Positions 5,776-20,814 of a stretch of 64,000 bases of DNA are shown here, in pieces (the first letter of the stretch is position 1; every line of letters begins with the position of its first letter). The translations under genes and the position numbers were made by a program. Under the pieces are notes generated by a model that was not told the DNA's origin, did not search any database, and was given only the letters and a program-made list of their open reading frames with translations. The stretch lies in assembly GCA_965203175.1 (NCBI GenBank), contig OZ241867.1:6272001-6336000 (forward strand). The letters are read 5' to 3'. Source of the stretch: Candidatus Latescibacterota bacterium. GTDB lineage: Bacteria > Latescibacterota > UBA2968 > UBA8231.

Positions 5776-6165
5776 ATGTGGCGGCTAAATACCGAAAACG
5801 CACCAGCGCTGACGCGAGCGGATAAAATTCTCGCACTCGTGGTGGGCTTGAGTGCGATCGGGCTGGTACTCTACGGCCGCTATACGGCCGAAGCCGGCGA
5901 CGTGCTCATTGTCGAGTTGGCGGGAGCCGCGCCCGCCACACATGCCCTCTCCAACTACGGGGTCTTGCCGGTTGCGGGATCTTTGGGAGTGAGCGAGATC
6001 GAGATCGGCCCCAAGGGTGCGCGCGTGCTTTCCGCGCCCTGCGTCCACAAAATCTGCATGCGGCAGGGTTGGATGCAGCGGGCGGGTGACGTGACCGCGT
6101 GCGTGCCCAACGGCTTAGTGCTGAGGATCGCTGGAGCCGCACCCATAGATGCGATGATTCGCTGA
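5776..6165 (+). CDS. NusG domain II-containing membrane-anchored protein (Lin0431/DUF1312-like)
   Basis: N-terminal TM, then beta-rich domain with APCVHKICMRQGW...ACVPN and terminal DAM. Confidence 0.8.
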   Translation: MWRLNTENAPALTRADKILALVVGLSAIGLVLYGRYTAEAGDVLIVELAGAAPATHALSNYGVLPVAGSLGVSEIEIGPKGARVLSAPCVHKICMRQGWMQRAGDVTACVPNGLVLRIAGAAPIDAMIR

Positions 6166-6686
6166 TGTTTGCACACCCTAGAGATGTGGCCCGTTTGGGG
6201 CTTATGGCCAGTGCGGCAATCGTGCTCTTCGCCTTTGAATCGCTGGTGCCCAAACCCTTGCCTTGGATGAAGCTGGGTCTCGGCAATCTGCCAGTTTTGG
6301 TCGCGCTGGTGAGCTTTGGCGGCGGTCCGGCGCTGGCCGTCAGTGCCATCAAGCTCGTAGTTGGCGGCTTGCTCAGCGGCGGATTTGCCGGTCCGGCCTT
6401 TGTTATTGGCGGTGGAGCTGGCTTGGCAAGTTGGCTGGTCATGGTTGCGATCCGCCGCATAGGGGCACGGCTTTTCAGCGTCGTGGGCCTGAGCATTTGG
6501 GGCGCGTTGACGCACCAGCTCAGCCAGCTCGCTCTCGCCGCTGGCTATATCGGCCACAGCGGTCTGTTCGCGCTCTTGCCGCTGGCCTTGTTCAGCGCTT
6601 TGGTGAGCGGGGGGGCTATCGGCCTGGTGGCCTGGTGGACCTTGGAACAACTAGAGAAAATAGGCTGGTTGGACCAAGGACAGTGA
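6165..6686 (+). CDS. Gx transporter family / heptaprenyl diphosphate synthase component I-like membrane protein
   Basis: ESLVPKPLPWMKLGLGNL and SVVGLSIWGALTHQLSQL motifs; TGATG overlap with the NusG-II gene, its usual partner. Confidence 0.8.
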   Translation: MFAHPRDVARLGLMASAAIVLFAFESLVPKPLPWMKLGLGNLPVLVALVSFGGGPALAVSAIKLVVGGLLSGGFAGPAFVIGGGAGLASWLVMVAIRRIGARLFSVVGLSIWGALTHQLSQLALAAGYIGHSGLFALLPLALFSALVSGGAIGLVAWWTLEQLEKIGWLDQGQ

Positions 6687-6725: not shown

Positions 6726-8693
6726 ATGGATTTGCCTAAAGAGTCTAGCTTTCAGATTCCAGTACGAGCCGAGCCGGTCTTCAGCGCCAAAGCGCTGTTG
6801 GCAGGCACCCTAGGGTCGCTGTGCATCGCCGTGGGAGCACCTTACGGCAACATGGTCATCCGCGGCTCCTACATGTCCATTGATTTCAGCGCCGCGGGTG
6901 CCCTGTTCCTCTTCTTCTTGCTAACGGGCTTGTTCAACGCCTTGCTGACGCGCTTCGCCGCTCCTGTGGCCCTCGGGCGTTGCGAGCTTATCGTCGCGTA
7001 CATTATGATGCTCACGGCCTCGGCCATTCCCACGATGGGCCTCAGCGAGTACTGGCTGACGATCATCACTGGTGCCCAGTACTACGCCACCCCGGAAAAC
7101 GAGTGGGCCCTACTCATCCTGCCGCACCTTCCCGAGTGGATCACACCGCAGGATCCCGAGGCGATCAAGTGGTTTTACGAAGGAGCACCGCGCACCACTG
7201 GGGTGCCTTGGGCCGCCTGGAGCGGCTCGCTGTGCTATTGGACTATTCTGATCGTAGCCCTGTACTTGGTCATGATCTCGTCTATGGTCATTATGCGCCG
7301 CCAGTGGGTGGAGCGAGAGCGGCTAGTTTATCCGCTGGTGCAGGTACCCCTGGCCATGGTGCAGAGCGGGGGCCGCGGAGAAGCCCTAGGCCCTTTCTTC
7401 AAAAATCCAATCATGTGGGTCGGCTTTGCCCTGCCCGTACTCGTCAGTAGCCTCAACGCCCTACACGCGTACTTCAACTTCATCCCCGCCATCCAACTCG
7501 TCTCTTCGATTCCGATCCTGCGCAACACCGTCAGCCTAATTTTTCGCCTGAGCTTTCCCATGATCGGATTCGCCTATCTAATCAACCTCGACATCGCCTT
7601 CAGCCTGTGGTTTTTCAACACCATTGCCAAGTTGATCCGAGGAGGGCTGGGAGTTTTAGGGGTTGGTAGCACTGAAAAGCTCGTTTACGGCGCTGCTAGC
7701 GAGCCAATTCTCGCCCATCAGGGACAGGGCGCGATGATCGTCCTAGTGGCCTTCGGCCTGTGGGTCGGCCGCGAGCACCTGCGCGACGTGCTGCGCAAGG
7801 CATTCCGAGGCGACAACCGCATCGACGACAGCGGCGAGATGCTCTCCTATCGGGCAGCGGTCTTAACTTGGCTCTCCGGCGTCGCAGTAATGACCATCTG
7901 GCTGTGGCAGTCTGGCTTGCCGCTGTGGGCGGCCTTTTTGACCCTGATGCTGGCCATCCTTATCTTCGTCGGCCTAACTCGAGTGGTAGTAGAAGGAGGC
8001 GTGGCCGCGGCAGTCGGGCCGATGATTTCTCCAACGGTCTTGGTCTCGGCCGTAGGCTCTTCGGCGATCGGCCCGGCCGGCATCGTCGGCCTCGCATACA
8101 CATTCGTGTGGGCGGCGGATATCCGCACCTTTGTCATGGCCTCCTGCGCACATGGCCTCAAGTTGGGTGAAGGACTAGGGTCGCGGCTGCGCCCGCTTTT
8201 TTGGTACATACTGCTGGCGATTGTCGTTAGCATCATCGGTTCGGTCGCAACGATTTTGTACCTCGCCTACGAATACGGCGGCATCAACCTCAACCCGTGG
8301 TTTTTTGGAGGTGGAACTCGCGCCCCTTTTGATTATATTACCACCAAGTTAAGCGCACCCACCGAGCCGAATATCAATGGCTGGATTCACACTTTTGTCG
8401 GCGGGGGCATCATGGCCCTGCTCATGTGGGCGCGCCAGCGGCTCTTGTGGTGGCCTCTGCATCCTATCGGCTACCCGATTGGTGCCGTATGGCTGATGGA
8501 CCAGTTATGGTTTAGCATTGCCATCGCTTGGCTCTTAAAGTTGTTGGCGATGAAATACGGCGGCCCCAGCCTTTTTCGTCGGGCGCGTCCTTTCTTTTTA
8601 GGCCTAATCATAGGCCAGTTTTTTATCGCGGGGCTCTGGTTGATTATCGATTTTTTTACGGGCATGACCGACAATGTGGTCTTCTGGATCTGA
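6726..8693 (+). CDS. Polytopic membrane protein, DUF6785/DUF6784-like (OPT-related)
   Basis: ~16 hydrophobic helices; RRQWVERERLVYPLVQVP; C-terminal WWPLHPIGY...KYGG..FRRARPFFLGLIIG. Confidence 0.7.
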   Translation: MDLPKESSFQIPVRAEPVFSAKALLAGTLGSLCIAVGAPYGNMVIRGSYMSIDFSAAGALFLFFLLTGLFNALLTRFAAPVALGRCELIVAYIMMLTASAIPTMGLSEYWLTIITGAQYYATPENEWALLILPHLPEWITPQDPEAIKWFYEGAPRTTGVPWAAWSGSLCYWTILIVALYLVMISSMVIMRRQWVERERLVYPLVQVPLAMVQSGGRGEALGPFFKNPIMWVGFALPVLVSSLNALHAYFNFIPAIQLVSSIPILRNTVSLIFRLSFPMIGFAYLINLDIAFSLWFFNTIAKLIRGGLGVLGVGSTEKLVYGAASEPILAHQGQGAMIVLVAFGLWVGREHLRDVLRKAFRGDNRIDDSGEMLSYRAAVLTWLSGVAVMTIWLWQSGLPLWAAFLTLMLAILIFVGLTRVVVEGGVAAAVGPMISPTVLVSAVGSSAIGPAGIVGLAYTFVWAADIRTFVMASCAHGLKLGEGLGSRLRPLFWYILLAIVVSIIGSVATILYLAYEYGGINLNPWFFGGGTRAPFDYITTKLSAPTEPNINGWIHTFVGGGIMALLMWARQRLLWWPLHPIGYPIGAVWLMDQLWFSIAIAWLLKLLAMKYGGPSLFRRARPFFLGLIIGQFFIAGLWLIIDFFTGMTDNVVFWI

Positions 8694-8710
8694 GAAAGGC
8701 ACTTACAATT

Positions 8711-11700
8711 ATGCCTAAATTCGCGGTGAAGTGGATGGCCCTCGGCTGGATTTTGGCCAGCGTGGCACCGGCCTGGACCGAGGTCGATTTTGCCGAGTTG
8801 GCACGGACGACCCCAGTCGAGCGCGTGCAGCAGACGATGGACACCTTTGCCAGCATGGGATCTAGAGTCGCTGGCTATCCAGGTGCCGACCAAGCGGCCC
8901 AGATCGTGCAGGAGCGCTTCCGCGCAATCGGCCTCGACGATATCGCAATCCACGAATACGATGTCTCGATTCCGGTCGATAAGGGTGGATTCCTGCAAGT
9001 CGTCGGCAACGGCGAACAAGTGCCAATCCACGGCCTCTGGCCCAACCTCGTCAAAACCTCGACGTTGCCCGAAGGCGGGATGACCGGGCGCCTGATAGAC
9101 GCTGGCGCGGGTGAGTACGCGGATATGGACGGCAAACAAGTCGAAGGGGCCGTAGCCCTGATGGACTTTAATTCGGGCGACGCCTGGCTCAATGCCGCCT
9201 ATCTCGGAGCGCAGGCCATCATCTTTATCGAGCCGGATTCCACCGTGTACTTGGAGGGCGAAAAGAAATTCCTCACCATGCCGCTCGACCTGCCGAGGTT
9301 CTGGGTCAATCGCCAAGCCGGCCAGCACTTGCGCCGCCAGTTAGCCGCAGGGGGCGAGCAGACGCTCCACTTGGAGTACCGCATGGATTGGGAGCGGTGC
9401 CCCGCTTGGAATATCCTCGGCACGATTCCCGGATACGACCCCTTGCTGAAAGAAGACGTGATCGTGCTGGAGGCGTACTACGACGCCATGTCGGTCGTGC
9501 CAGCCCTAGCCCCGGGTGCCGAGCAGGCCTCCAGCATTACTGCGCTGTTAGAGCTGGCGCGCTATTTTCGCGCGAACCCGCCAGCGCGCACGATCGTCTT
9601 TCTCGCCACCTCGGCCCACCACTTGGGCTTGCGCGGGGTCGATGATTTCATCCAGCGCTATTTGCGCAAAGAGGATCCCTTTATCGAACACATGCTGGTG
9701 CGGCGGGTCGTCGATGCCGCACTCGCGCAAAACATGATCGCCCAAGACGGCATCCACTACGCCATCGGCGAGGAGGAGTTTACCGGCAAGGAAGCCCTCG
9801 TGCGGAGCGTTGCTGAAGGACGCACCGACTTGGCCGCGCACATTGCCGACGCCGCTCTCGCCGAAGGGCTGCTGAGCCAAGAGCAAGGCGCACTGCACCT
9901 CGCCGACGAGCAATTCAAAAACCGCGACGAACTAGTTGATGAACTGCACTCGGATGACGACTTGCGCCTCGCGCTCTACAAAACTTGGGCCGACCCCAAA
10001 GTCGATTCGCTCGCGGTCAAACTCTTTATCAGTCTCGACCTTTCGTCGCAAACCGACGAGCTCGGAGTCTGGAACAGCAATACCAGCTTTTACTACAAGC
10101 GCTACTTCGCGCCCTTCGGCAAGAACTTTATGGGTTATGCGCGCAAGATCAGCCGCGAATTGGGCTACCAGCAGCGCGACGTGCTGGTCAATGGCATCAG
10201 CCCCGAAGGCGGGATGAGCTGGCAGACTTTTGTACCGGGCGAAATATCGGTCAACAGCGAATTGGTGTTGGCGACTGGCACGCCAGCGTTGGCCTTTGTC
10301 ACAGTCAACGACGCGCGCTTCCTCGTCGATACGCCCTTAGACCGAGCCGAGCGCGTCAACCACGCCAATCTCGCCAAACAGATTCGGGTGCTCGCCGGTA
10401 TGTTCGAGATGGCCTTTGAAGACCCAGAGCTTTTCCCGGACTTCAAGATGCGCCTGCGCGACAATCTGCGCTCTCTGCGCGGCCGGACCATGGTCTTTCC
10501 GCGCCGCAGCATCATCCCCGACCTGCCGCGCGCAGACGCAGTAGCCGTCGTGCGCAACGGCAAGAAAAAGTCGTATAAAGGCGTGCGCGGCGAGTACTAC
10601 GAGGTTGTCGATGATAAGGGGGCCTTCTACGTAAATCGAGTGCGAGTCAACAACGTGCAGATCGAGGGCTATTACATGGACCCGATCACCGGCCGCATCA
10701 CCTACGCCCCGGACCGCGGCGTGCAAGGCGACGAGAGTTACCCGATGAGGGTATCCATGGACTGGCGCGATAAGCAGTGGATGGTCATTCTCTTCCCCTG
10801 CGTGCCCTACAACTTCTTCGACATCGTTGATCCGCGCTATCTCACCAAGCTGTCCAACGTGTCGGTCTTCGATGAGACAAACGGCGCGCCCGTGGAGTAC
10901 GGTTACACTATTGGCGAAGGCCCCTCGGCCCAGAACGAGCCGGTTGGAGTGCTGTTTGCGCGGCCCGGCTCGCACATAAAAATGGGTTTTGGTGCGGGCC
11001 TGCTGGGATTCCGCTCGCTGCTGCTCAACTCCACCAGCGTCACTGACAAAGACAAGGCCGAGGGTGAGGGCTTTGAGATCCGCCCCGGCACCTCTTTTGC
11101 CCGCACGACCTTCCAAGCCGCCCAAGACATGTGGAATCTCGACGAGTCGCGGATGCGCGAACTGCGGAGCTTTGCCATTGAGAATCAGCGTCTCAACGAC
11201 CTCCACTACCGAGCTGAAACCGAGTTAAACCAAGCCGCAGCGGCTGGTACTGAGCAACGCTGGGGAGATTTCGTGCGTCACACGCGCGCGGCCTTCGGGC
11301 TAGAATCGCGCGCCTATCCAGACGTCAAATCCACCCAAAACGACGTCGTTCAGGGCATTATCTTCTTCATGGCCCTCGTCCTTCCCTGCGCCTTTTTTAC
11401 CGAGCGGCTCATTTTTACTGCCGCCACGATCCGCAATCAAATCATCGGGTTTGCCGGGGTTTTCCTAGTGATCTGGATCGTGCTGTGGTTGGTGCATCCA
11501 GCCTTTCAGTTATCCAATCCCTTCGTCATCCTGCTCGCTTTCATCATCATCGTGCTAGCCGTTCTCGTGATGTCGATCATTTCCGGCCGCTTCAACGAAC
11601 AGATGAAAAAGCTGCGCACCGAGGTGGCAGTGATCCACGACACGGACGTCAGCCGCTCTTCGGCCTCGCTGACCGCCTTCCAGCTCGGGATTTCCAACAT

Positions 11701-13462
11701 GAAGCGGCGCAAGACGCGCACGGTCCTCACCTTTACCACGCTCTTGCTGCTGACCTTTACGGTTCTCTCCTTCACCTCCATCCGCACGGGCCTGCGGTTC
11801 AACCAAATCAGCCGCGACAACGAGGGGCTCTACGAGGGCATCCTAATCCGCAGCAAGGCGTGGAATCCGATGGAGGATTCAGTCCTCGAATACGCCCGCA
11901 GCAATTTCGGTGATCGGGCTGCGGTCGCGCCGCGTAGCTGGTACAGCAATAAGGCTAAAGCGCACATCAAAATAAAACACGGAGAAAACGCCCATAACGC
12001 GCTCGGCGTCCTTGGGTTGACCCCTGAGGAGACCCAAGTCACCAGGCTGAATCAAGCCCTAGTCGCCGGGCGGTGGTTCGAGCCGGGCGAGGACAAGGTC
12101 TGCATCCTGCCCATCGACATGGTCAAAGAAGATCATCTCGACATCGACCTCGCTAAAGTTGGCCAGGAGCAGGTTCGCATCTTCGGCGACTTGTTCACGG
12201 TCGTTGGCGTCCTCGACTCCAAGCGGATGAAGGATCTCAAAGACCTCGACGACGAAATCTTGACGCCAGCCGACTTCGCCGTCACCGGCGGCCAAGCTGT
12301 GCAGGAGATCGCCGAGGAAGAAAAGCGCGAGAAGCAGGGCTTGGAGGACGCCAAGGTCGTCATCAAGCCCTTTGTCCATATAGAGCCGGCCAACATCCTA
12401 ATCGTGCCTTACCACACGCTGCGCAACGTCGGTAGCGGCAATCCCCTGCAATCCGTGGCCGTGCGCTTCCCCGCGGGCAGCGACGTGCGGGGCGAGGTCG
12501 AGGAATTCCTCTCGCGCCTCGCGGTGACCCTGTTCGCCGGAGTCAAGGAGGCTGGCGACGAATACATCAAGGTGTCGATCTACTCATCGCTGGGGATGAC
12601 CTCCTTTTCCGGGATCAGCAACTTGTTTATCCCCATGCTGATCGCCTCGCTGATCGTGCTCAACACCATGATGGGCAGCGTGTACGAGCGCTTCCGCGAA
12701 ATCGGCATCTACTCTTCGGTGGGCTTAGCCCCCGGCCACATCTCTTGGCTCTTTATCGCCGAAAGCTGCGTCTATTCGGTGCTGGGCGTCGTCGCCGGTT
12801 ATCTCAGCGGCCAAGTAATCGCCAAAGTACTCATCGAATTCGAACTGCTGGGCGGCTTCACGCTCAACTACTCTTCAGTGGCCGCGGTGCTCTCCTGTAT
12901 GCTGGTGATGGCCGTGGTCATGCTCTCGACGATCTATCCAGCGCGCAAGGCTTCGCAGATGGCCGTGCCGGACGTGACCCGCAAGTGGAAACTGCCACCG
13001 CCCGACGGCGATCAGTGGGATTTCGAGTTTCCCTTTACGGTCAGCGGCCACGAGGTCTTGGGTTTGAGCGTATTCCTCATCGGCTACTTCGACTCCTATA
13101 GCGAAGAGTCCATCGGCACTTTCTACACCGACGGTGCCCAGCTAAGCCGCGAAGAAACGCCCAACGGCGAAGGATACATCATCGACATGAATATCTGGCT
13201 GGCTCCTTTCGACTTGGGCGTCAGCCAACACGTCACCGTGCGGGCCATGCCAGAGGCCGAGCACAACATTTACGCAGTCAGCCTACAAATTAAGCGACTC
13301 AGCGGCGAGGACGCCTCGTGGCGGAGGGTCAATCAGCGCTTTATGAACGTCATCCGCAAACAGTTCCTCATCTGGCGCACGGTGGATGCCGAGGCCAAAG
13401 AAGGCTACCGCCAACAGGGCGCGGAAATTCTGCAAGGGCTGCGCAGCGAAGTTTCGGCGTAA
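8711..13462 (+). CDS. Large fusion protein: signal peptide, PA/M28-peptidase-like ectodomain, TM bundle, MacB/FtsX-type permease, C-terminal soluble domain
   Basis: Signal-like N-terminus; SRVAGYPG and NILGTIPG (M28 fold); ISNMKRRKTRTVLT and SVYERFREIGIYSSVGL...FIAES (MacB/FtsX). ATG 8711 chosen as start, 17 nt after the upstream stop. Confidence 0.75.
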   Translation: MPKFAVKWMALGWILASVAPAWTEVDFAELARTTPVERVQQTMDTFASMGSRVAGYPGADQAAQIVQERFRAIGLDDIAIHEYDVSIPVDKGGFLQVVGNGEQVPIHGLWPNLVKTSTLPEGGMTGRLIDAGAGEYADMDGKQVEGAVALMDFNSGDAWLNAAYLGAQAIIFIEPDSTVYLEGEKKFLTMPLDLPRFWVNRQAGQHLRRQLAAGGEQTLHLEYRMDWERCPAWNILGTIPGYDPLLKEDVIVLEAYYDAMSVVPALAPGAEQASSITALLELARYFRANPPARTIVFLATSAHHLGLRGVDDFIQRYLRKEDPFIEHMLVRRVVDAALAQNMIAQDGIHYAIGEEEFTGKEALVRSVAEGRTDLAAHIADAALAEGLLSQEQGALHLADEQFKNRDELVDELHSDDDLRLALYKTWADPKVDSLAVKLFISLDLSSQTDELGVWNSNTSFYYKRYFAPFGKNFMGYARKISRELGYQQRDVLVNGISPEGGMSWQTFVPGEISVNSELVLATGTPALAFVTVNDARFLVDTPLDRAERVNHANLAKQIRVLAGMFEMAFEDPELFPDFKMRLRDNLRSLRGRTMVFPRRSIIPDLPRADAVAVVRNGKKKSYKGVRGEYYEVVDDKGAFYVNRVRVNNVQIEGYYMDPITGRITYAPDRGVQGDESYPMRVSMDWRDKQWMVILFPCVPYNFFDIVDPRYLTKLSNVSVFDETNGAPVEYGYTIGEGPSAQNEPVGVLFARPGSHIKMGFGAGLLGFRSLLLNSTSVTDKDKAEGEGFEIRPGTSFARTTFQAAQDMWNLDESRMRELRSFAIENQRLNDLHYRAETELNQAAAAGTEQRWGDFVRHTRAAFGLESRAYPDVKSTQNDVVQGIIFFMALVLPCAFFTERLIFTAATIRNQIIGFAGVFLVIWIVLWLVHPAFQLSNPFVILLAFIIIVLAVLVMSIISGRFNEQMKKLRTEVAVIHDTDVSRSSASLTAFQLGISNMKRRKTRTVLTFTTLLLLTFTVLSFTSIRTGLRFNQISRDNEGLYEGILIRSKAWNPMEDSVLEYARSNFGDRAAVAPRSWYSNKAKAHIKIKHGENAHNALGVLGLTPEETQVTRLNQALVAGRWFEPGEDKVCILPIDMVKEDHLDIDLAKVGQEQVRIFGDLFTVVGVLDSKRMKDLKDLDDEILTPADFAVTGGQAVQEIAEEEKREKQGLEDAKVVIKPFVHIEPANILIVPYHTLRNVGSGNPLQSVAVRFPAGSDVRGEVEEFLSRLAVTLFAGVKEAGDEYIKVSIYSSLGMTSFSGISNLFIPMLIASLIVLNTMMGSVYERFREIGIYSSVGLAPGHISWLFIAESCVYSVLGVVAGYLSGQVIAKVLIEFELLGGFTLNYSSVAAVLSCMLVMAVVMLSTIYPARKASQMAVPDVTRKWKLPPPDGDQWDFEFPFTVSGHEVLGLSVFLIGYFDSYSEESIGTFYTDGAQLSREETPNGEGYIIDMNIWLAPFDLGVSQHVTVRAMPEAEHNIYAVSLQIKRLSGEDASWRRVNQRFMNVIRKQFLIWRTVDAEAKEGYRQQGAEILQGLRSEVSA

Positions 13463-13475
13463 GGGAGGATAGCGA

Positions 13476-15896
13476 GTGCTCGGAAGCAAAAATAGAAACC
13501 CGAACCAAGAGATCGAAGAATATCGGGATTTAATGCAGGTCCCGGACCGCTTCGAGAACGGCTTTACGATCAAGGCCATCCTCGGCGTGCTCTTCGTCGC
13601 CTTCATCATGGTGCCGGGCAATATGTACTTGAGCCTGATGATCGGCGGCTCTTTGGGGGCGGCGGCCGAGTGGGTGACCATCATCCTCTTCGCCGAAATC
13701 ACCAAGCGTTCCTTCTCCTCCCTCCGGCGCCAAGAAGTCTATGTGCTGTTCTACGTGGCCGGCTCGCTGATTGCCGCTGAGACTGGTGCCTTTGAGGGCT
13801 TGCTCTACAACCAGTACTTGGTGCAATCGCCAGCGGCCAAGCAGTTCGGCATCACCAAGCTGATTCCCACTTGGGTGGCTCCGCCGCTCGACTCCTCCGC
13901 CATCATCGAGCGTACCTTCCTACACTCGGATTGGACGATGCCGATCATCCTCCTAGTCTTGGGGATGATCATCTCGCGCATCAACTGGTTCACTATGTCA
14001 TACGCGCTCTTCCGGCTCAGCTCCGACTACGAGCGCCTGCCCTTTCCCTTCGCGCCCGTAAACGCCCAAGGTGCTACGGCGCTGGCCGAGACTACCCAAG
14101 GACTTGAGACGTGGCGCTGGCGGGTCTTCTCGGCGGGGGCGATGATCGGCTTGGTCTTTGGCACGATCTACGTGGCCCTACCGGCGATTACTGACGCGCT
14201 GCTGACCGAGCCGATCCAACTCATACCCATTCCCTTTGTCGACTTCACGCAAGTTACCGGCAACTTTATCCCGGCCACTCCGCTGGGATTTACCGCGCAC
14301 TTAGGGCCGATCTTCGTCGGTCTAGTGGTGCCGTTCTGGGGCGTGATTGGCACCTTTATCGGCGTGGCCGTCACCTCCATTGCCAGTCCGCTGCTCTATA
14401 CCTGGACGCCTTCGTGGCGCGAGGAGCCTTACCTGAACTTGTGGCAGCAAGGCATGGGCACGATCGAGACCTACTTCGTCAACTACGTCGATTTCTGGAT
14501 GAGTTTCGGCCTCGGCACCACTGTCGCCATCGCCGTCATCGGCATCTATCAGATATCTCAGAGCGTGCGCAGTGCTAGGGCTAACAAGAGGGATGATGAC
14601 AGTCCCAAGCGCAGCTTCGCCCCCCCCGCTGGCCGAGGCGATTTCCCCATCTGGGTGGCGTTGGCACTATACGCTTTAGCCACGGCCGGCCTGATCGGCA
14701 TCGCCGCTTGGCTGCTGCCGGGCATTGCCCAATTTATATGGTTTTTCCTCTTCTTTGGTTTCGTATTTACGCCCTTTCAATCCTTCGTCAACGCCCGCCT
14801 AGTCGGGATGGTGGGGCAGACGGTGGACATCCCCTTCGTGCGCGAGGCCACGATTATCTTCTCTGGGTATCGCGGTGTTGACATCTGGTTCATTCCGTTT
14901 CCCTTGGGCAACTACGGTGCCCAGACCCAGAAGTTCCGCGAAATCGAATTGACCGGAACCCAGTTTACCAGCATTATCCGCGCCGAGATTTTCATGGTAC
15001 CCATCGTGCTCTTTACCAGTTTTCTCTACGGCTCCTACATCTGGAAACTAGCACCGATCCCGTCGGCCTCCTACCCCTATGCCCAGCTCATGTGGCGGCT
15101 GCGCGCCTATCAGCAATGCCTCTACATCACCGGCACTATGCGCAGCGAACTGGCCATAGACAAAGACCGGGCGGGATGGACCCCGGCTAACCTAATCGAA
15201 AACGAGTGGTGGTACTGGCGGGTGCGGCTAGTGGATCAAGAATGGCTGGACTCCAACGGCAATCTCGGTCAAGTCGGCCCGTGGATGCCGACCCAAGTTT
15301 TCTACTCGTACTTCGATCAGGGGGCACCCGACATTGTCGCCGAGCGCTACCTGCGCGACGAGCAGCTAGCCGAAGAGGAAATTGTCGAGGGCCTGCCGGC
15401 AGTTGTCCCGCTAAGGCCGGCCATGGACACCATCATTCGCGCGCCCCGTCCGACCCTCGAAGTGAAGGCCGAGCGAGCCGTGCCGGCGGGGTGGTCTTTC
15501 TACTTTGAGGTCGATACTGATCCGCTCTTTACAAGCTCTTGGATCCAGCGGTCCACCGACGTGCCTTGGCTCTTTAGAGCGCTGAAACCAGAGGTCATCG
15601 CCTTTGGTGCCGGCTTAGGGCTGGTGAGTTTCTTTCTGCTGTCCATCCTCGGGCTGCCAATCCTGCTGATCTTTGGCTTCGTGCGCTCGCTGGCGTCCAT
15701 ACCACATTACGTGGTGACCGAGATCATCGGCGCGCTCTTGGCTCGCTACTACTTTTGGAACAAGTACGGGCGGCAGGAATGGCGGCAATTTGCCCCGGTT
15801 CTGGCGGTGGGCTTCTCCTGCGGCATGGCATTGATAGGGATGGCGGCGGTGGGGATCGCCCTGATCCAGAGATCAGTCTCCGTGCTGATCTTCTAG
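13476..15896 (+). CDS. OPT-like oligopeptide transporter family membrane protein with a soluble FN3-like insertion
   Basis: GFTIKAILG, LRRQEVYVL, ERLPFPFAPV; many TM helices; ~140-aa hydrophilic beta-rich loop near the C-terminus; GGGAGG RBS before GTG. Confidence 0.65.
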   Translation: MLGSKNRNPNQEIEEYRDLMQVPDRFENGFTIKAILGVLFVAFIMVPGNMYLSLMIGGSLGAAAEWVTIILFAEITKRSFSSLRRQEVYVLFYVAGSLIAAETGAFEGLLYNQYLVQSPAAKQFGITKLIPTWVAPPLDSSAIIERTFLHSDWTMPIILLVLGMIISRINWFTMSYALFRLSSDYERLPFPFAPVNAQGATALAETTQGLETWRWRVFSAGAMIGLVFGTIYVALPAITDALLTEPIQLIPIPFVDFTQVTGNFIPATPLGFTAHLGPIFVGLVVPFWGVIGTFIGVAVTSIASPLLYTWTPSWREEPYLNLWQQGMGTIETYFVNYVDFWMSFGLGTTVAIAVIGIYQISQSVRSARANKRDDDSPKRSFAPPAGRGDFPIWVALALYALATAGLIGIAAWLLPGIAQFIWFFLFFGFVFTPFQSFVNARLVGMVGQTVDIPFVREATIIFSGYRGVDIWFIPFPLGNYGAQTQKFREIELTGTQFTSIIRAEIFMVPIVLFTSFLYGSYIWKLAPIPSASYPYAQLMWRLRAYQQCLYITGTMRSELAIDKDRAGWTPANLIENEWWYWRVRLVDQEWLDSNGNLGQVGPWMPTQVFYSYFDQGAPDIVAERYLRDEQLAEEEIVEGLPAVVPLRPAMDTIIRAPRPTLEVKAERAVPAGWSFYFEVDTDPLFTSSWIQRSTDVPWLFRALKPEVIAFGAGLGLVSFFLLSILGLPILLIFGFVRSLASIPHYVVTEIIGALLARYYFWNKYGRQEWRQFAPVLAVGFSCGMALIGMAAVGIALIQRSVSVLIF

Positions 15897-15897
15897 C

Positions 15898-16890
15898 ATG
15901 AGCGCTTGGGTAGATTTCGCTTGGCAGGGACTACAGTTGTCCGTGCCGGACGACTGGAATCTCGGTCGGGTTGACGGGGATTTTGAAAAGGGCTATGCCC
16001 GCCTCGACGACGCCGAAATCGTGCGCGCCGAGATCGAATGGCGGCGTCTCAAAGGCCGCGGCGAGGCCCTGCGTCTGACCGAGTTGGTAGATCGCTACTT
16101 AGCCAATCTGCAAAAGAAGGCCCAAAAGGTCGATGCTCCCTTTGAGGTCCAGCGCCGCGCTCGCTTCCTCAAGAACAAGAAATTCCTCGAAGGCCGAGAA
16201 TACGAAGTCTTCATCTGGGAGGCCGACTTCCGCGCGTACAACCTAGCGCTCGCCTTGAAGTCCGGGCGGGTTGTGCTCCTGCGAGTGCTGGCCAAGCCAG
16301 ACGAATTTTTGCCCGAGCAAGCCGAGGCCGTGTTCAGCTCGCTCGTCGATCAAGAAGGCGAGGACGCTCATCTGTGGAGCGTGTACGGCTTGCGGTTTTT
16401 CGCGCCTAGCGACCTCAAGCTACAGAGCCATTCCCTCAAGTCGGGCCATATTGAATTAGAGTTCTCCCTCGGCAAACAAGTTCTAAAGGTGCATCGGTTG
16501 AGCATGGCCCGGATCATGCTCAAAGACGCACACATCCAAGACTGGTATCCGGTTTTTTTTAAAAAGCAATTGCGCGACTTCGTGGTGGACATTGTTCCAG
16601 AAGCCGTGCAGGAACACGAGGGCATTCGCGTCGAGGGGCGGCCGCGCAGCCGCTGGCGTCAGCTTTTGCGTCCCTTGCCCTTTATAAACCCGAGGCCGCG
16701 CCTGTATATGCGGGGGCGCATCTGGCGCGATACCGGGATCGACAAAATCGCCATGGTCGAGCACCTCTACCGCAAGAAAGACGCACAGGACGATCTAGTC
16801 GCCAAGGTAGTAGATGGGCATTTTATCGAAAAACAAGGGACCCAAGCTGAGCCGGGCCGCCATGCTGGCGTCGCGGCCAACGCGCAATGA
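15898..16890 (+). CDS. Hypothetical soluble protein with two repeated domains
   Basis: Starts 1 nt after the upstream stop; FAWQGLQLSVPDDW / LWSVYGLRFFAPSDL repeat pattern. Confidence 0.7.
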   Translation: MSAWVDFAWQGLQLSVPDDWNLGRVDGDFEKGYARLDDAEIVRAEIEWRRLKGRGEALRLTELVDRYLANLQKKAQKVDAPFEVQRRARFLKNKKFLEGREYEVFIWEADFRAYNLALALKSGRVVLLRVLAKPDEFLPEQAEAVFSSLVDQEGEDAHLWSVYGLRFFAPSDLKLQSHSLKSGHIELEFSLGKQVLKVHRLSMARIMLKDAHIQDWYPVFFKKQLRDFVVDIVPEAVQEHEGIRVEGRPRSRWRQLLRPLPFINPRPRLYMRGRIWRDTGIDKIAMVEHLYRKKDAQDDLVAKVVDGHFIEKQGTQAEPGRHAGVAANAQ

Positions 16891-17263
16891 GTCCCTGCGC
16901 TGGGAAAACAACGACAACGACGAGGTCCAGGTCTTCATAACGCGCCAAGAGACCTGGAGGGTGCGGCTGTTGTCGAAGTTTTTCTACATACCCAAGCAGC
17001 GCAAAATCACCCTCGACGAGGTCGGCAGTGAGGTCTGGCGAATGTGCAATGGCCGCAACTCGGTCGGCAGGATGATCGAAGAGCTCAGCGACAAGTACCA
17101 GCTCAATCGCAAAGAGGCCGAGGTCTCCCTGCTCCAGTATTTGAAGACCCTTGGGCAGAAGCGCTTCATCGGCTTTGTGCTAGAGGGCGACGAGAGACCA
17201 CCTGGGCGCGGCGCGGCCAGCGGAAAAAAATGGCAAAAGAAACAAACAGGGGCGAGCAATTAG
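16814..17263 (+). CDS. PqqD family / RiPP recognition element (RRE)-like protein
   Basis: ITLDEVGSEVWRMCNGRNSVGRMIEELSDKYQL...VSLLQYLKTLGQKRFI matches the PqqD winged-helix pattern. The start could instead be 16862. Confidence 0.8.
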   Translation: MGILSKNKGPKLSRAAMLASRPTRNESLRWENNDNDEVQVFITRQETWRVRLLSKFFYIPKQRKITLDEVGSEVWRMCNGRNSVGRMIEELSDKYQLNRKEAEVSLLQYLKTLGQKRFIGFVLEGDERPPGRGAASGKKWQKKQTGASN

Positions 17264-17850
17264 CTCGTCCCTGTTTTCGTCTACACCCGCACCACGTCGC
17301 ACACTTCTTCTCCCACTTGCTCAATCCCGCGCTGTTGGCACTCTTGGTCTTCGGCGTCCAAGCGCACGTGCTGGGCGACTGGCTCGCCGGCTCAGTGGCG
17401 ATCGGCACCTTCTCCTTGGTACCTGGGCTGCTTCTCTGGCACTTCGTGCGCTCGGGGTATCTCGACAAAGCCTATACAGACGACCGCAACAAGCGCGCTA
17501 CCCTGCTCTTGCTGGGCGCTCTTTGCTACACCTTAGGGAGTGCAGGTCTCTACGGGATCGGTGCTCCGCCCCTAATGCTGGTCACGGCCGCGTCCGGTGT
17601 CGTCAACACGCTCTTGGTCTGGTGGATCAATCGCTCCTATAAAATCAGCATTCACGCGGCTGGTGTCGGAGGGGCGACCTGTGTATTGTTGATCAGCGTC
17701 GGCAGCGCGGCGTGGCCCTTTTTGCTCAGTTGGCCGGCCGTCGCTTGGGCGCGGCTTTACTTGCGGGCGCACACTCCCATGCAGATCGGCGCGGGCGGCG
17801 CGCTGGGCGCGGGGAGTATGGCCCTGCTGTACAGTGCTTTCATATGGTGA
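17230..17850 (+). CDS. PAP2-superfamily-like membrane protein
   Basis: ~6 TM helices with KISIHAAG and WARLYLRAHTPMQ (PAP2 C2/C3-like motifs). Confidence 0.65.
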   Translation: MAKETNRGEQLARPCFRLHPHHVAHFFSHLLNPALLALLVFGVQAHVLGDWLAGSVAIGTFSLVPGLLLWHFVRSGYLDKAYTDDRNKRATLLLLGALCYTLGSAGLYGIGAPPLMLVTAASGVVNTLLVWWINRSYKISIHAAGVGGATCVLLISVGSAAWPFLLSWPAVAWARLYLRAHTPMQIGAGGALGAGSMALLYSAFIW

Positions 17851-17859
17851 ACACGGCAC

Positions 17860-20082
17860 ATGAACCAATCGTATAAGGGTTTTATAGATCGCCTGACTTA
17901 CCACAACCCGGAAAACGGCTATACCATTGCGCGCTTAGTCGTCGAGGGGCAGCGCGAGCGGATCGCCATCGTGGGGACGCTTGCCTCCATCCAAGAGGGC
18001 GAGAGCGTCGAAATCGCAGGCGTGTGGACCAATCACCCCAAATACGGCAAACAGTTCAAGGTGGAGCACTATAAGGCCGTTTATCCCTCGACCCTCGAAG
18101 GCATACAAAAGTACCTCGGCTCCGGTCTGATCAAAGGCGTCGGAACGAAATCGGCCAAGCGTATCGTCGATCACTTTGGCGCGGAAACGCTCGACATCAT
18201 CGACGCGGATCCCCAACGGCTAGCTGAAGTACCCAAGCTGGGCAAAAAGAGAGTCGAGCTGATTGCCGCGGCTTGGGACGAGCAGCGGCAAATCAAGGAC
18301 GTGATGGTCTTTTTGCAGTCGCACGGGATTACCACTGGCTATGCGGTGAAAATTTTTAAGACCTACGGCCAAGAGGCCATTCAAAAGGTGCGCAGCGATC
18401 CCTATCGCTTGGAGCGCGATGTGGATGGGATCGGCTTCCGCATCGCCGATCGCATTGCCCAGCGCTTGGGCCTGGGCCGCGACGCCCCCGAGCGCGTACA
18501 GGCTGGCATCCGCTACTTGCTCTCCGAAGCAGCCGACGAGGGCCACGTGTACCTGCCGACCGCTAGAACGATGAAGCTGCCGGCCGTTGGAATGGTGGAG
18601 TTGCCGGCCGTTGGAATGATGGAACGGGCCGTCGAAATTTTGGACATTGACGCCGAGCTGTTGCCGCCGGCATTAGAGGCCCTGCGCGCCAACGACGGCG
18701 TAGTCACCGAAGACCTGCGCTGCTATTTGCCGCCACTCCACCGCGCCGAAGTGGGTGCCGCATCGTCGCTAAAGCGGCTCTTGCGAGCGCCGGCCGAAGA
18801 GTTGGCCGTGCCCGCAGAAGCTGAGGACGGGCTGGAATTGGCTTCGGCGCAAAAACAAGCCGTGGAACTGGTCGCCACCAGCAAGGTACTAGTGCTAACT
18901 GGCGGGCCGGGCACCGGCAAGACCACGGTCACGCGGCGCATCTTGCATCTCTTGGAGAAAGGCGGCCTCAAGGTCGCGCTGTGCTCGCCTACGGGCCGCG
19001 CCGCCAAGCGGCTGAGCGAGGCCAGCGGGCGCGAGGCCAAGACCATTCATCGACTGCTGGGATTTCAGCCGGGCGAGCGGCAATTCAAAAAGGGCTACGA
19101 CGACCGCCTCGAAATCGACGCGCTGATCGTCGATGAGGCTTCCATGATCGACGTGGTGCTGCTCAACGCGCTCCTGCGCGCCCTGCCCGACCACGTTCGG
19201 CTAGTGCTAGTCGGCGACATCGATCAGTTGCCCTCGGTAGGGCCAGGCAACGTGCTCCGCGACATCATCGACTCCGCCGAAGTGCCGGTGGTGCGCCTGA
19301 CGCAGATTTTTCGCCAAGCCCAAAAAAGCCACATCATCCGCAACGCGCACCGCATCAACAGCGGCGAAATGCCCATCGTCGAGAACGACGCGGCCGCGGA
19401 TTTCTACTTCATCCAAGAAGGCGACCCAGAGCGGGTGGTCGAGCTAGTCGAGGAGTTGTGCGCCGCGCGGCTGCCCAGCTATCGGGGGTGGGATCGGCGC
19501 AACGACATCCAAGTGCTTTCGCCCATGTACCGCGGCGAAACCGGTGCGCTCAATCTAAACCAGCGGCTGCAACAGCGCCTCAACCCGCACGGGCAGGCAC
19601 ATAGCCATCGCGGGGCCGAGTTCCGGGTGGGCGACAAGGTCATGCAGGTCAAAAACAACTACGACAAGGGCGTTTTTAACGGCGACATCGGCACGATCGA
19701 GCGGCGCGATGCGGAAAAGCAGGTACTCTACGTGCGCTTTGACTACACCTTGGAATACGATCAGGTCGATCTCGACCAGCTCACCCTCGCCTACGCCATC
19801 AGCATCCACCGCTCTCAGGGGTCGGAATTTCCCGTGGTAGTGCTACCGCTGACGACGCAGCACTACGTGATGCTCCAGCGCAACCTGCTCTACACGGCAA
19901 TTACCCGCGCCAAGCAAATGATCGTCATCATCGGCACCTCCAAGGCCCTCAAGCTGGCCATTGCCAACGACAAGGTCGCCCAGCGCTACACCACGCTCAA
20001 ACAGCGGCTGCGCGGCGAGGTCGGCGAGGTAATGGAAGCGGGACAAGCCATCCCACTAGAATCAACACTGCCGAGCGATTAA
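17860..20082 (+). CDS. recD2: ATP-dependent RecD2 helicase
   Basis: HPKYGKQF, YLGSGLIKGVG, GGPGTGKT, IVDEASM, GDIDQLPSVGPG, AYAISIHRSQGSEF, LLYTAITRA. Confidence 0.93.
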   Translation: MNQSYKGFIDRLTYHNPENGYTIARLVVEGQRERIAIVGTLASIQEGESVEIAGVWTNHPKYGKQFKVEHYKAVYPSTLEGIQKYLGSGLIKGVGTKSAKRIVDHFGAETLDIIDADPQRLAEVPKLGKKRVELIAAAWDEQRQIKDVMVFLQSHGITTGYAVKIFKTYGQEAIQKVRSDPYRLERDVDGIGFRIADRIAQRLGLGRDAPERVQAGIRYLLSEAADEGHVYLPTARTMKLPAVGMVELPAVGMMERAVEILDIDAELLPPALEALRANDGVVTEDLRCYLPPLHRAEVGAASSLKRLLRAPAEELAVPAEAEDGLELASAQKQAVELVATSKVLVLTGGPGTGKTTVTRRILHLLEKGGLKVALCSPTGRAAKRLSEASGREAKTIHRLLGFQPGERQFKKGYDDRLEIDALIVDEASMIDVVLLNALLRALPDHVRLVLVGDIDQLPSVGPGNVLRDIIDSAEVPVVRLTQIFRQAQKSHIIRNAHRINSGEMPIVENDAAADFYFIQEGDPERVVELVEELCAARLPSYRGWDRRNDIQVLSPMYRGETGALNLNQRLQQRLNPHGQAHSHRGAEFRVGDKVMQVKNNYDKGVFNGDIGTIERRDAEKQVLYVRFDYTLEYDQVDLDQLTLAYAISIHRSQGSEFPVVVLPLTTQHYVMLQRNLLYTAITRAKQMIVIIGTSKALKLAIANDKVAQRYTTLKQRLRGEVGEVMEAGQAIPLESTLPSD
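18553..18624 (+). repeat. 3 x 24-bp in-frame tandem repeat inside recD2
   Basis: ctgccgaccgctagaacgatgaag / ctgccggccgttggaatggtggag / ttgccggccgttggaatgatggaa, encoding LPTARTMK LPAVGMVE LPAVGMME. Confidence 0.85.
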
Positions 20083-20085
20083 TTT

Positions 20086-20814
20086 CTACAAGTCATCGCG
20101 CAGCAGCCAGCGCACGGCGTTTTGCTGCAACTTCTCGTAGGCCGGATTCCACAGCGCGGGGATGGTGTGTCCCGGTGATAAATAACATACGCGGCCCGCG
20201 CCGTAATCGTACGCCCAAGCCGCCTCGCACGTGGTGCCCAAGTCCTGCCAAGTGTGCCCGTCGTCGTTGACGCTGACGGCCAAGACATGGGCCGGGTCCT
20301 TGTCGTACTGCATGAAGTGCTGCTCGTCCTCAACGACAAAGTCCTCCACGCCGCGCGTTATGGGATGGTTTGTACGCGTGATGTGCACGCGGTAGGGACG
20401 CACCGGCGGGTGGCCTTGCGTAGCAGCGCCTAGCACGTGGCGGAAGTCGCTGCTGCCCGGAGCGATATACGTGGAATTGTGGTAGAAAAGAGCCGCGCCA
20501 CCTGCCTCCACAAAGCTCCGCACGGCGCGGCCCTGATCCTCGGTAATCCACTGCACGGGATGGGATCCCTCAGCCTGGACGGGCGGCTCGCTAACGGACG
20601 CAGCCTCTATGCCGTAGCCATTGGGCCAGATCATGCCGTCGCGGAAGGTGATCAGTAGTCGGTAGTTCGACAGATGTTGGGCGTTGAGTAGGGTAATCTC
20701 GTCAGTAAAGTCAACGGATAATCCCATGCCTTGGATCAAGGTGCGGCCCAAAGCCGTGCGGATGTAATCAGACGTGTGATAGCGGTCGCCCACTAGGGCA
20801 AAAGCCGTAGCCAT
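20086..20814 (-). CDS. ThuA-like domain protein (class I glutamine amidotransferase-like fold)
   Basis: GDRYH, FVEAGGAALFYH, HPITRGVEDFVVEDEQH, YGAGRVCYLSPGH. Confidence 0.8.
   Translation of the reverse strand: MATAFALVGDRYHTSDYIRTALGRTLIQGMGLSVDFTDEITLLNAQHLSNYRLLITFRDGMIWPNGYGIEAASVSEPPVQAEGSHPVQWITEDQGRAVRSFVEAGGAALFYHNSTYIAPGSSDFRHVLGAATQGHPPVRPYRVHITRTNHPITRGVEDFVVEDEQHFMQYDKDPAHVLAVSVNDDGHTWQDLGTTCEAAWAYDYGAGRVCYLSPGHTIPALWNPAYEKLQQNAVRWLLRDDL

Follow-up and report, generated by a model that had tools for sequence, protein, structure and literature searches.

Does a run of six closely packed genes in a Candidatus Latescibacterota bacterium encode a single machine, and if so, what does this machine do? 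The genes lie at positions 6726 to 17850 of a stretch of 64,000 nucleotides (GenBank assembly GCA_965203175.1, contig OZ241867.1, positions 6,272,001 to 6,336,000 of the forward strand), which is called the window below. They are numbered g1 to g6 in the 5' to 3' direction, and the genome itself, of 6.58 Mb, is labelled G000. An earlier reading, made without database searches and here called the sequence-only reading, took all six genes for one multi-subunit envelope system that captures a peptide or peptide-like polymer. The answer developed here is that the core consists of g2 to g5, that g1 is an accessory of one lineage, and that g6 is a mere neighbour which travels with a RecD2 gene. The core would supply the membrane-bound and cytoplasmic components of an as yet undescribed type VII (MacB/FtsX-type) ATP-binding cassette (ABC) machine, with the ATPase and a small FtsX half-permease unlinked from it.

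The case for a core starts with gene order. Related loci were gathered by a scan with g2, keeping one genome per species, and all nine proteins of the window were searched in these 50 loci by tblastn. The order and strand of g2-g3-g4-g5 are kept in 43 of them, spread over Latescibacterota, Poribacteria and Armatimonadota, which puts the arrangement far beyond chance. Among the seven exceptions, six are cut by the end of a contig or locus (L031, L032, L037, L053, L059 and L064) and one has an insertion (L042). The colinear loci include L056 to L058 of Poribacteria and L060 and L062 of Armatimonadota. Loci of these two phyla have identities of 36-42% for g2, 41-43% for g3, 24-31% for g4 and 33-35% for g5. 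The idea of one conserved system, co-localised across phyla, holds for these four genes; the six-gene membership does not.

The first gene, g1 (6726-8693, + strand), encodes a permease of 655 amino acids with the Pfam domains DUF6785 and DUF6784. It is absent from six Latescibacterota-type loci that keep g2 to g5, and there the NusG_II and Gx-type genes found upstream in the window abut g2 directly. There is also no g1 in any of the Poribacteria and Armatimonadota loci examined. It is dispensable to the system, and specific to this lineage.

At the other end, g6 (17230-17850, + strand) encodes a PAP2-like membrane protein of about 206 amino acids with five hydrophobic segments. Its start is uncertain: the longest open reading frame runs from 17044 to 17850, and conservation is limited to roughly 17230-17850. 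In 6 of 13 Latescibacterota-type loci (L029, L036, L040, L044, L048 and L054) it lies 1.5-2 kb from g5, and it directly precedes RecD2 wherever the fetched locus extends far enough. No g6 occurs in the clusters of other phyla. The PAP2 label is itself weak, with a score of 19.5-20.1 bits under a Pfam cut-off of 27.2; seven of nine orthologs give a colinear match of 17.6-26.4 bits, all below the same cut-off. The core is set at g2 to g5 because g1 is missing in many loci and g6 is separable from g5. An opposite candidate, in which g4 and g5 fall outside the core as they have no paralogs in G000, was overturned by the synteny across phyla.

The presence and absence of genes agrees with this. Of 151 genomes sampled from the phylum, 132 carry one copy of g4, and 13 of the 14 families are represented among them; 129 carry one copy of g5, with the same family pattern. 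Both are present in 129 genomes, g4 only in three (which are incomplete), g5 only in none, and neither in 19. These figures should be read as counts, not as tests, since related genomes are not independent of one another. The family labelled f10 has g4 and g5 in none of its 13 genomes. Five of these, 93-97% complete, also have no g3-family protein (0/5), and the giant permease was not found in them: the g2 profile only reaches ordinary FtsX permeases of 410-460 amino acids, at 50 bits or less.

In Armatimonadota, g4 is single-copy in 80 of 101 sampled genomes. As a side observation, 18 of 81 Armatimonadota g4 matches come with a single in-frame TGA or TAG, for which recoding, errors of sequencing or read-through into the flanking DNA could account.

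What would power such a machine? No ATPase gene is found among the window genes or in six paralogous loci of G000. In all three Poribacteria loci, an ABC_tran ATPase follows the PqqD gene, which is g5. In Armatimonadota L060 and L062, the PqqD gene is followed by an FtsX-only protein of 220 amino acids and then the ATPase. Twenty further Armatimonadota loci of 16 kb, centred on g4, were fetched. Twelve have g2-g3-g4-g5-small FtsX-ATPase in colinear order, and one stops after g4 at a contig end. No DUF6785 gene occurs in these 20 loci.

In G000 the orthologous pair lies at G000:C1:5900278-5901776, unlinked and about 0.38 Mb from the window operon. Its ATPase matches at 3.1e-111 (next best 4.1e-78), with 63-71% identity to the ATPases found within clusters; the small FtsX ortholog matches at 1.3e-42. 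NCBIfam places the ATPase in the LolD/MacB type, with 228 bits for TIGR02211 and 219 bits for the MacB model, both under the equivalog cut-offs. We infer from the orthology that this ATPase couples to g2. The parts list of the sequence-only reading had no energy source, and in this respect was incomplete. Next to the pair, on the same strand, are glycosyltransferase and RmlD-like genes (L065:9846-13181, which is G000:C1:5901846-5905181), and a TauE-like gene overlaps the end of the ATPase gene.

The largest component is g2 (8711-13462, + strand), a giant permease of 1583 amino acids. A hydrophobicity scan gives a signal-like N-terminus, about 850 periplasmic residues, three transmembrane helices (TM), an FtsX module and a cytoplasmic tail of 175 residues. 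The periplasmic region has a head with protease-associated (PA) and M28-like parts and a degenerate active site, followed by about 450 amino acids of unassigned sequence. The FtsX module consists of TM1, a periplasmic core domain and TM2-4. Pfam finds Peptidase_M28 at 8e-09 (profile positions 1-79 of 193 only), MacB_PCD at 2.7e-08 (34.8 bits, cut-off 27) and FtsX at 2.9e-15 (56.8 bits, cut-off 25.5). A total of 1513 relatives were found. The Poribacteria orthologs (L056:9824-16954 and L057:1690-8808) have about 2370 amino acids, some 790 more than g2 of the window.

An AlphaFold2 model of residues 860-1583 has a predicted local distance difference test score (pLDDT) of 74.3. Foldseek matches it to MacB (5gko) at E 2.4e-12. 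By VIA, YtrF has Z 15.5 and the periplasmic region of MacB (3ftj) has Z 14.2, with a root-mean-square deviation of 3.5 over 180 amino acids; FtsX structures match at Z 13.6 (8tzj) and 12.7 (8hd0). Taken together, the model matches MacB, Spr0695, LolC/E, YtrF, HrtB, FtsX, YbbP and BceB, with YtrF, MacB, HrtB, FtsX and LolC at Z 12.7-15.5. At the level of a predicted model, this confirms a MacB-type fold with the four-helix FtsX module and a periplasmic core domain between TM1 and TM2. The cytoplasmic tail has middling fold matches (Aha1-C, START and KA1-like, Z around 8). Each giant protein has a single FtsX match. The candidate that g2 is an internally duplicated FtsX permease was rejected, as the three-helix block compared with FtsX TM2-4 gave an hhalign probability of 0.4%.

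The head deserves separate treatment. Its closest PDB sequences are the aminopeptidases YwaD (6hc6, 9.1e-10) and 2ek8, with nicalin as a weak match (E 0.019). In an alignment with YwaD, 2ek8 and the Aeromonas aminopeptidase, g2 has Y for H, Q for the bridging D, and HH for EE. These altered positions are, we take it, the zinc-ligand histidine, the bridging aspartate and the catalytic/ligand Glu-Glu pair of M28. Across 23 g2 orthologs and paralogs, the first is Y, H or F, the second is variable, and the pair is H followed by H, F or N. Variation at the bridging Asp position, together with an F in place of the second Glu in many members, excludes a canonical co-catalytic di-zinc site. The substituted residues are themselves conserved (YYD, PGAE, and AH, with an invariant H where M28 has the catalytic E), and the head may hold an unusual metal site. 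Since the canonical site is lost, the head probably binds a substrate and does not cleave it. The sequence-only reading had called the M28 domain a receptor, and the replacement of metal and catalytic residues in all 23 aligned members is consistent with a non-catalytic role.

The second membrane component is g3 (13476-15896, + strand), a polytopic protein of 806 amino acids. It has some 11-13 hydrophobic segments, and about 190 of its amino acids (around residues 520-710) form a soluble insert. It has no Pfam family; its relatives number 3716, and none of the 120 listed has a Pfam domain. Its C-terminus matches TIGR00728 (OPT_sfam) at 7e-05 and 21.6 bits, under a cut-off of 128.35. Compared by hhalign with a DUF6785 profile of 45 paralogs, it has a probability of 94.3% (E 1e-07, over the N-terminal 205 columns), and a separate comparison gave 92.9%. 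BLASTP sees no similarity between g1 and g3; the relation is visible by profile comparison only.

On the g1 side, the Pfam matches are strong: DUF6785 at 1.7e-123 (413.2 bits, cut-off 25) and DUF6784 at 1.6e-31 (108.9 bits, cut-off 26.4). Neither g1 nor g3 matches the Pfam OPT (oligopeptide transporter) model PF03169, and this model finds no canonical OPT protein in 41 related genomes. What it does find there are weak colinear matches to g3-family and DUF6785 proteins, some over the cut-off of 25.8 bits. These cover positions 527-622 in g3-family C-termini, 134-413 in g3-type proteins of 692 amino acids (35-36 bits), and 361-573 in a DUF6785 protein (36.6 bits). The PDB, searched with the sequences and profiles of g1 and g3 and with g4, gave no meaningful match, and an Atlas search yielded nothing beyond unnamed clusters or an automatic 'peptide transporter' label. 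Full-text searching turned up no mention of DUF6785 or DUF6784 in any paper, and the function of both families is undescribed.

Sequence profiles therefore suggest that g3 and DUF6785 (g1) are remote homologs of OPT. The relation is at the superfamily level only, because g1 and g3 stay under the OPT cut-offs while their relatives pass on partial colinear matches. Of the two 'OPT-like' transporters once proposed, the remote likeness survives for both, and neither reaches an OPT cut-off. The proposal that g1 and g3 form a heterodimeric channel is unsupported, because g3 occurs without g1.

The two remaining core proteins are small and soluble. A hydrophobicity scan predicts no membrane segments in g4 or g5, in keeping with their earlier placement as cytoplasmic partners. 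The first, g4 (15898-16890, + strand), has 330 amino acids and no sequence match in Pfam, NCBIfam or the PDB. It had been described as a repeat protein, and indeed its halves are homologous (hhalign probability 97.4%, E 1.2e-11). The AlphaFold2 model has a pLDDT of 90.4 and a predicted template modelling score (pTM) of 0.87. Residues 2-152 superpose on CyanoP (2xb3) with Z 13.3 and a deviation of 3.0 over 138 amino acids, and residues 156-317 on Mog1 with Z 11.7. Foldseek and superposition also bring up TplEi/Tli4, PsbP, DcrB, LpqN, Tsi3 and the Eag chaperones. As modelled, and at fold level only, g4 is a tandem duplication of a PsbP/Mog1-like domain.

The g4 family matches 1803 representative clusters, and none of 29 sampled has a Pfam hit. 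Its members are named only 'hypothetical protein', and come from metagenome-assembled genomes labelled Poribacteria, Armatimonadetes, candidate division WS1 and Planctomycetes. Most g4 relatives have a near-invariant CxxC...C...C(H) motif, probably a zinc site; the genus of the window has lost every one of these residues.

The second soluble protein, g5 (16814-17263, + strand), has 149 amino acids and is PqqD/RRE-like (RRE being a RiPP recognition element, where RiPP stands for ribosomally synthesised and post-translationally modified peptide). Pfam PqqD (PF05402) matches at 1.6e-10 and 41.6 bits, with a cut-off of 23.4. The N-terminal extension is conserved, and in 15 orthologs from three phyla P10, R14, P22, R24 and W30 are invariant. 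No similarity was detected by hhalign between g4 and g5, or between g4 and the C-terminal domain of g2.

The surroundings of related genes bear on the substrate. G000 has 56 DUF6785 genes over the cut-off, of which g1 is one, and 14 control genomes have none. Neighbourhoods of these genes, including loci L086-L125, were examined. Most of the genes adjoin catabolic ones: the 84 immediate neighbours include sulfatases with formylglycine-generating enzyme (FGE), PhyH dioxygenases, amidohydrolases and FG-GAP/ASPIC proteins. Further neighbours are aldo-keto and GFO/IDH/MocA reductases, 3-keto-disaccharide hydrolase and gamma-glutamyl transpeptidase. DUF6785/DUF6784 looks like the main substrate-carrier family of this organism.

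G000 also has seven giant M28-FtsX paralogs, each adjoining a DUF6785 gene, and five of them are near a g3-type gene. In one locus (L011:7405-13803, which is G000:C1:2862405-2868803), a single open reading frame of 2132 amino acids joins an M28-FtsX permease to a full DUF6785/DUF6784 protein, with a TonB-dependent receptor following it. This fusion argues for physical coupling. Neighbours of the paralogous modules include TonB-dependent receptors (L010 and L011), an M42 peptidase (L009) and an M55 D-aminopeptidase (L014), and in Armatimonadota L060 an M42 peptidase gene comes after the cluster. At L009:13163-16390, a g3 paralog of 1075 amino acids has PDZ domains in the insert region, and the M42 peptidase gene is upstream of it. 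The same locus has a group II intron reverse transcriptase (RVT_1+GIIM+HNH) at 18082-19842. Elsewhere in G000, at C1:2.06-2.11 Mb, there are about 15 duplicated FtsX permeases of around 800 amino acids (ADOP-like) with ATPases nearby.

A maximum-likelihood tree of the permease half, rooted at midpoint, groups five of six G000 paralogs with the Latescibacterota orthologs, to the exclusion of Poribacteria and Armatimonadota (support 96/93). Branches are long for the paralogs and short for the orthologs; the paralog of L014 has a very long one, and its placement is uncertain. The tree suggests that the giant-permease paralogs of G000 are fast-evolving duplications within the lineage, a pattern that is usual for nutrient systems.

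So what would the machine do? Tentatively, and at somewhat below an even chance, we favour an uptake role, in which g2 to g5, assisted by ATP, capture and take in peptides or similar oligomers. We infer that the parts assemble physically, and they would work as follows. Hydrolysis by the LolD-like ATPase would move the FtsX helices, and through these the periplasmic core domain and the head, as in MacB, LolCDE and FtsEX. Through this motion a periplasmic peptide or oligomer would be captured, unfolded or fed into g3, the permease of the OPT superfamily, and in this lineage perhaps also into the DUF6785 permease g1. The substrate would cross the inner membrane inwards, and g4 and g5 would be binding, adaptor or gating partners at its cytoplasmic face. 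The OPT family consists of proton-coupled importers of oligopeptides and metal chelates. Uptake is favoured because characterised OPT carriers import, because the DUF6785 expansion and the duplicated modules are in nutrient-acquisition contexts, and because M28-like and PDZ modules recognise chain ends.

A bolder version is rather doubtful. It would make this the first type VII ABC importer, in which a dead-aminopeptidase 'hand' seizes chain ends and threads them into an OPT-like scaffold, with the PsbP- and PqqD-like proteins receiving them. In Latescibacterota, Armatimonadota and Poribacteria, oligomer uptake would depend chiefly on this machine, and the duplicated modules and 56 DUF6785 carriers would be the counterpart of the SusCD-type loci of Bacteroidota.

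Several points weigh against uptake. To our knowledge, no characterised type VII ABC system imports; the known ones export, extract or activate in the periplasm. The substrate, its binding and the direction of transport are putative, and so is the carrier fold of g3, which is under every OPT model cut-off. Peptidase neighbours occur in few loci only. The ATPase of G000 is assigned by orthology alone, and seven giant permeases would have to share it. In 7 of the 20 further Armatimonadota loci, g4 appears without its partners within the fetched 16 kb. The need for a PqqD-like and a tandem PsbP-like protein is left unexplained. Lastly, there is constraint: over 14 distant Latescibacterota-type loci, median identity is 75.5% for g2, 69.7% for g3, 65.0% for g5 and 51.2% for g4, with RecD2 at 59.1%. 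A single-copy, near-universal system with g2 and g3 above RecD2 in conservation fits a housekeeping envelope function equally well.

That last point leads to the strongest rival: a machine for export, extraction or envelope maintenance, where g3 delivers cargo from the cytoplasm or membrane, having received it from g4 and g5 on the inner side. This is possible, though on the whole we doubt it. ATP-driven movement of periplasmic domains is what MacB, LolCDE and HrtBA do, and all solved relatives of the g2 model (MacB, LolC/E, HrtB, YtrF, FtsX, BceB and YbbP) export, extract or activate. Near-universal single copies in two phyla (132/151 and 80/101 genomes) and the conservation of g2 and g3 beyond RecD2 favour it too. 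So does the fold of g4, which is that of the Eag chaperones, DcrB and LpqN, handlers of hydrophobic or envelope cargo. PqqD-like proteins are known to bind peptides before processing or export. Yet characterised OPT-superfamily carriers import, no biosynthetic or precursor gene adjoins the cluster in the loci examined, and the cluster has no outer-membrane duct or adaptor gene. The seven fast-evolving paralogs next to TonB-dependent receptors and catabolic enzymes, along with 56 DUF6785 genes in catabolic loci, are also a better fit for nutrient acquisition.

A regulator like FtsEX is improbable. Here the FtsX module would switch the M28-like head, perhaps with a non-canonical metal site, or a bound partner, so as to trim cell-wall peptides or periplasmic proteins, which g3 would then recycle. 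FtsX is among the fold matches (8tzj at Z 13.6, 8hd0 at Z 12.7), G000 has no FtsE over the cut-off, and the substituted M28 positions are conserved (YYD, PGAE and the invariant H). The extra N-terminal part of Poribacteria g2 has a LysM match at 2.3e-09, but this is partial, covering 25 of 43 profile positions in one of two proteins. The variable bridging Asp and the frequent F at the second Glu exclude the canonical co-catalytic site. Seven paralogs in catabolic contexts would be odd for a switch of division or cell wall, and the cluster has no M23, amidase or EnvC-like partner.

It is very unlikely that the genes are a RiPP transporter or immunity module with g5 as the leader-peptide recognition element. 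An ABC ATPase does follow g5 in other phyla, g5 is over the Pfam PqqD cut-off, and it matches the PqqD-type NCBIfam models for lasso peptides, PQQ and GeoRSP under their cut-offs. No RiPP precursor or modifying enzyme (radical-SAM, cyclase or protease) is found near g5 in the window or in the family scans of related loci, in which small precursor open reading frames were not searched for. Presence as a single copy in 129 of 151 genomes and a conserved order in three phyla are also unlike patchy RiPP clusters. The least credible reading of all, already contradicted by the synteny, is that of neighbours without a common function, which has in its favour an unlinked ATPase in G000 and the variation of g1 and g6 between lineages, and against it 43 of 50 colinear loci in three phyla, the permease-DUF6785 fusion, the matching presence and absence, and a conserved g4/g5 overlap.

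The layout of the window itself can now be described. The open reading frame calls agree with what the sequence-only reading had seen: six co-oriented genes with gaps of 17 nucleotides (g1/g2), 13 (g2/g3) and 1 (g3/g4), and a g4/g5 overlap of 77. The longest frame of g2 is 8528-13462; the ATG at 8711, followed by the signal-like N-terminus, gives the 17-nucleotide gap. The first ATG of g5 is retained in 10 of 13 Latescibacterota-type loci examined. RecD2 (17860-20082, + strand) begins 9 nucleotides after g6. The run is bounded by a divergent relA/spoT gene (3448-5637, - strand) on one side and a convergent ThuA-like gene (20086-20814, - strand) on the other. Upstream of g1, also on the + strand, a NusG_II-domain protein (5776-6165, Pfam 7.9e-16) is overlapped by the gene of a Gx-type membrane protein (Hpre_diP_synt_I, 6099-6686, Pfam 7.3e-32). 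This pair sits directly upstream of the system across Latescibacterota (41 of 43 loci of that type) and not in other phyla (0 of 7 Poribacteria and Armatimonadota loci).

Within the operon there are no convincing terminators, and window positions 1-24000 have no Rfam families. A metatranscriptome contig of 9351 nucleotides, about 94% identical to the window, covers 7995-17242, from within the 3' part of g1 as far as the end of g5, and contigs from a second run of the same study tile this span. The libraries with transcript contigs that match the operon are marine, sponge and coral metatranscriptomes. Only contigs were used, and depth figures played no part in ranking genes. In three runs from two studies, contigs start at 7993-7998, and one start is preceded by 20 unmatched letters, presumably sequencing-adapter sequence. 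About 30 nucleotides upstream of these starts, inside g1, a consensus scan finds a promoter-like TTGACC-17-TATCTT at 7938-7966 (+ strand). This is a weak hint of an internal transcription start for g2 to g5 within g1, and only that, because the contigs prove neither a single transcript nor its ends. There is also a terminator-like hairpin at 7919-7933, inside the g1 coding region.

What follows from all this? Two large unnamed families without a Pfam model, the g3-type and the g4-type, can now be assigned to a machine whose motor is identifiable, as can DUF6785 and DUF6784. If the machine is an importer, type VII ABC systems would no longer be confined to export or periplasmic action, and an ABC motor would be cooperating with a secondary-carrier fold. 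If it is a housekeeping envelope machine, an unknown core process exists in three little-known phyla, Latescibacterota, Armatimonadota and Poribacteria. Either way, structural studies gain a concrete target, as does genetics with cultured Armatimonadota.

None of the parts is new as such. Every component belongs to known superfamilies or folds; the combination is undescribed, and there is a substantial chance of a new mode of action. The sequence-only reading knew of no characterised pathway that combines these parts, and family libraries, together with the literature within reach of full-text search, yielded none either. The supplementary peptidase table of a paper on Latescibacteria, PMC4454575, may list g2 homologs as 'M28'.

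Compared with the OPT family, g3 bears a soluble insert of about 190 amino acids, with PDZ domains in one paralog, and is tied to an ABC machine. With respect to DUF6785/DUF6784, g1 is a full-length member, and the N-terminal third of g3 is homologous but too distant for detection by Pfam. The halves of g4 superpose on CyanoP, Mog1, DcrB, LpqN, Tsi3, TplEi/Tli4 and the Eag chaperones at Z 9.4-13.3. It differs from these PsbP/Mog1-like proteins in being tandem and in having no sequence similarity to named families, and a likeness of fold does not imply one of function. PqqD and RRE proteins share the PF05402 domain with g5, which differs by its N-terminal extension and its constant pairing with g4 and an ABC machine.

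The head of g2 can be likened to the transferrin receptor and nicastrin, which we take to be catalytically inactive M28/PA-fold receptors. It shares the PA part, the M28-like fold and the replaced residues with these, but it is fused to an ABC permease, and its substitutions form their own conserved pattern (YYD, PGAE, AH).

The closest known systems are the type VII ABC machines, such as MacB, LolCDE, FtsEX, HrtBA, YtrEF, YbbAP and BceAB. They share with g2 the four-helix FtsX module and the MacB-type core domain, and the cognate ATPase is likewise of the LolD/MacB type. The cluster differs in having no adaptor or outer-membrane duct gene, and in a separate small FtsX protein of 220-233 amino acids whose periplasmic domain is almost nil. 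The single FtsX module of g2 is preceded by a PA/M28-like region of 850 amino acids and three extra transmembrane helices, and followed by an added cytoplasmic domain of 175. Unlike any of these systems, g2 is obligately linked with an OPT-like permease and with tandem PsbP-like and PqqD-like proteins.

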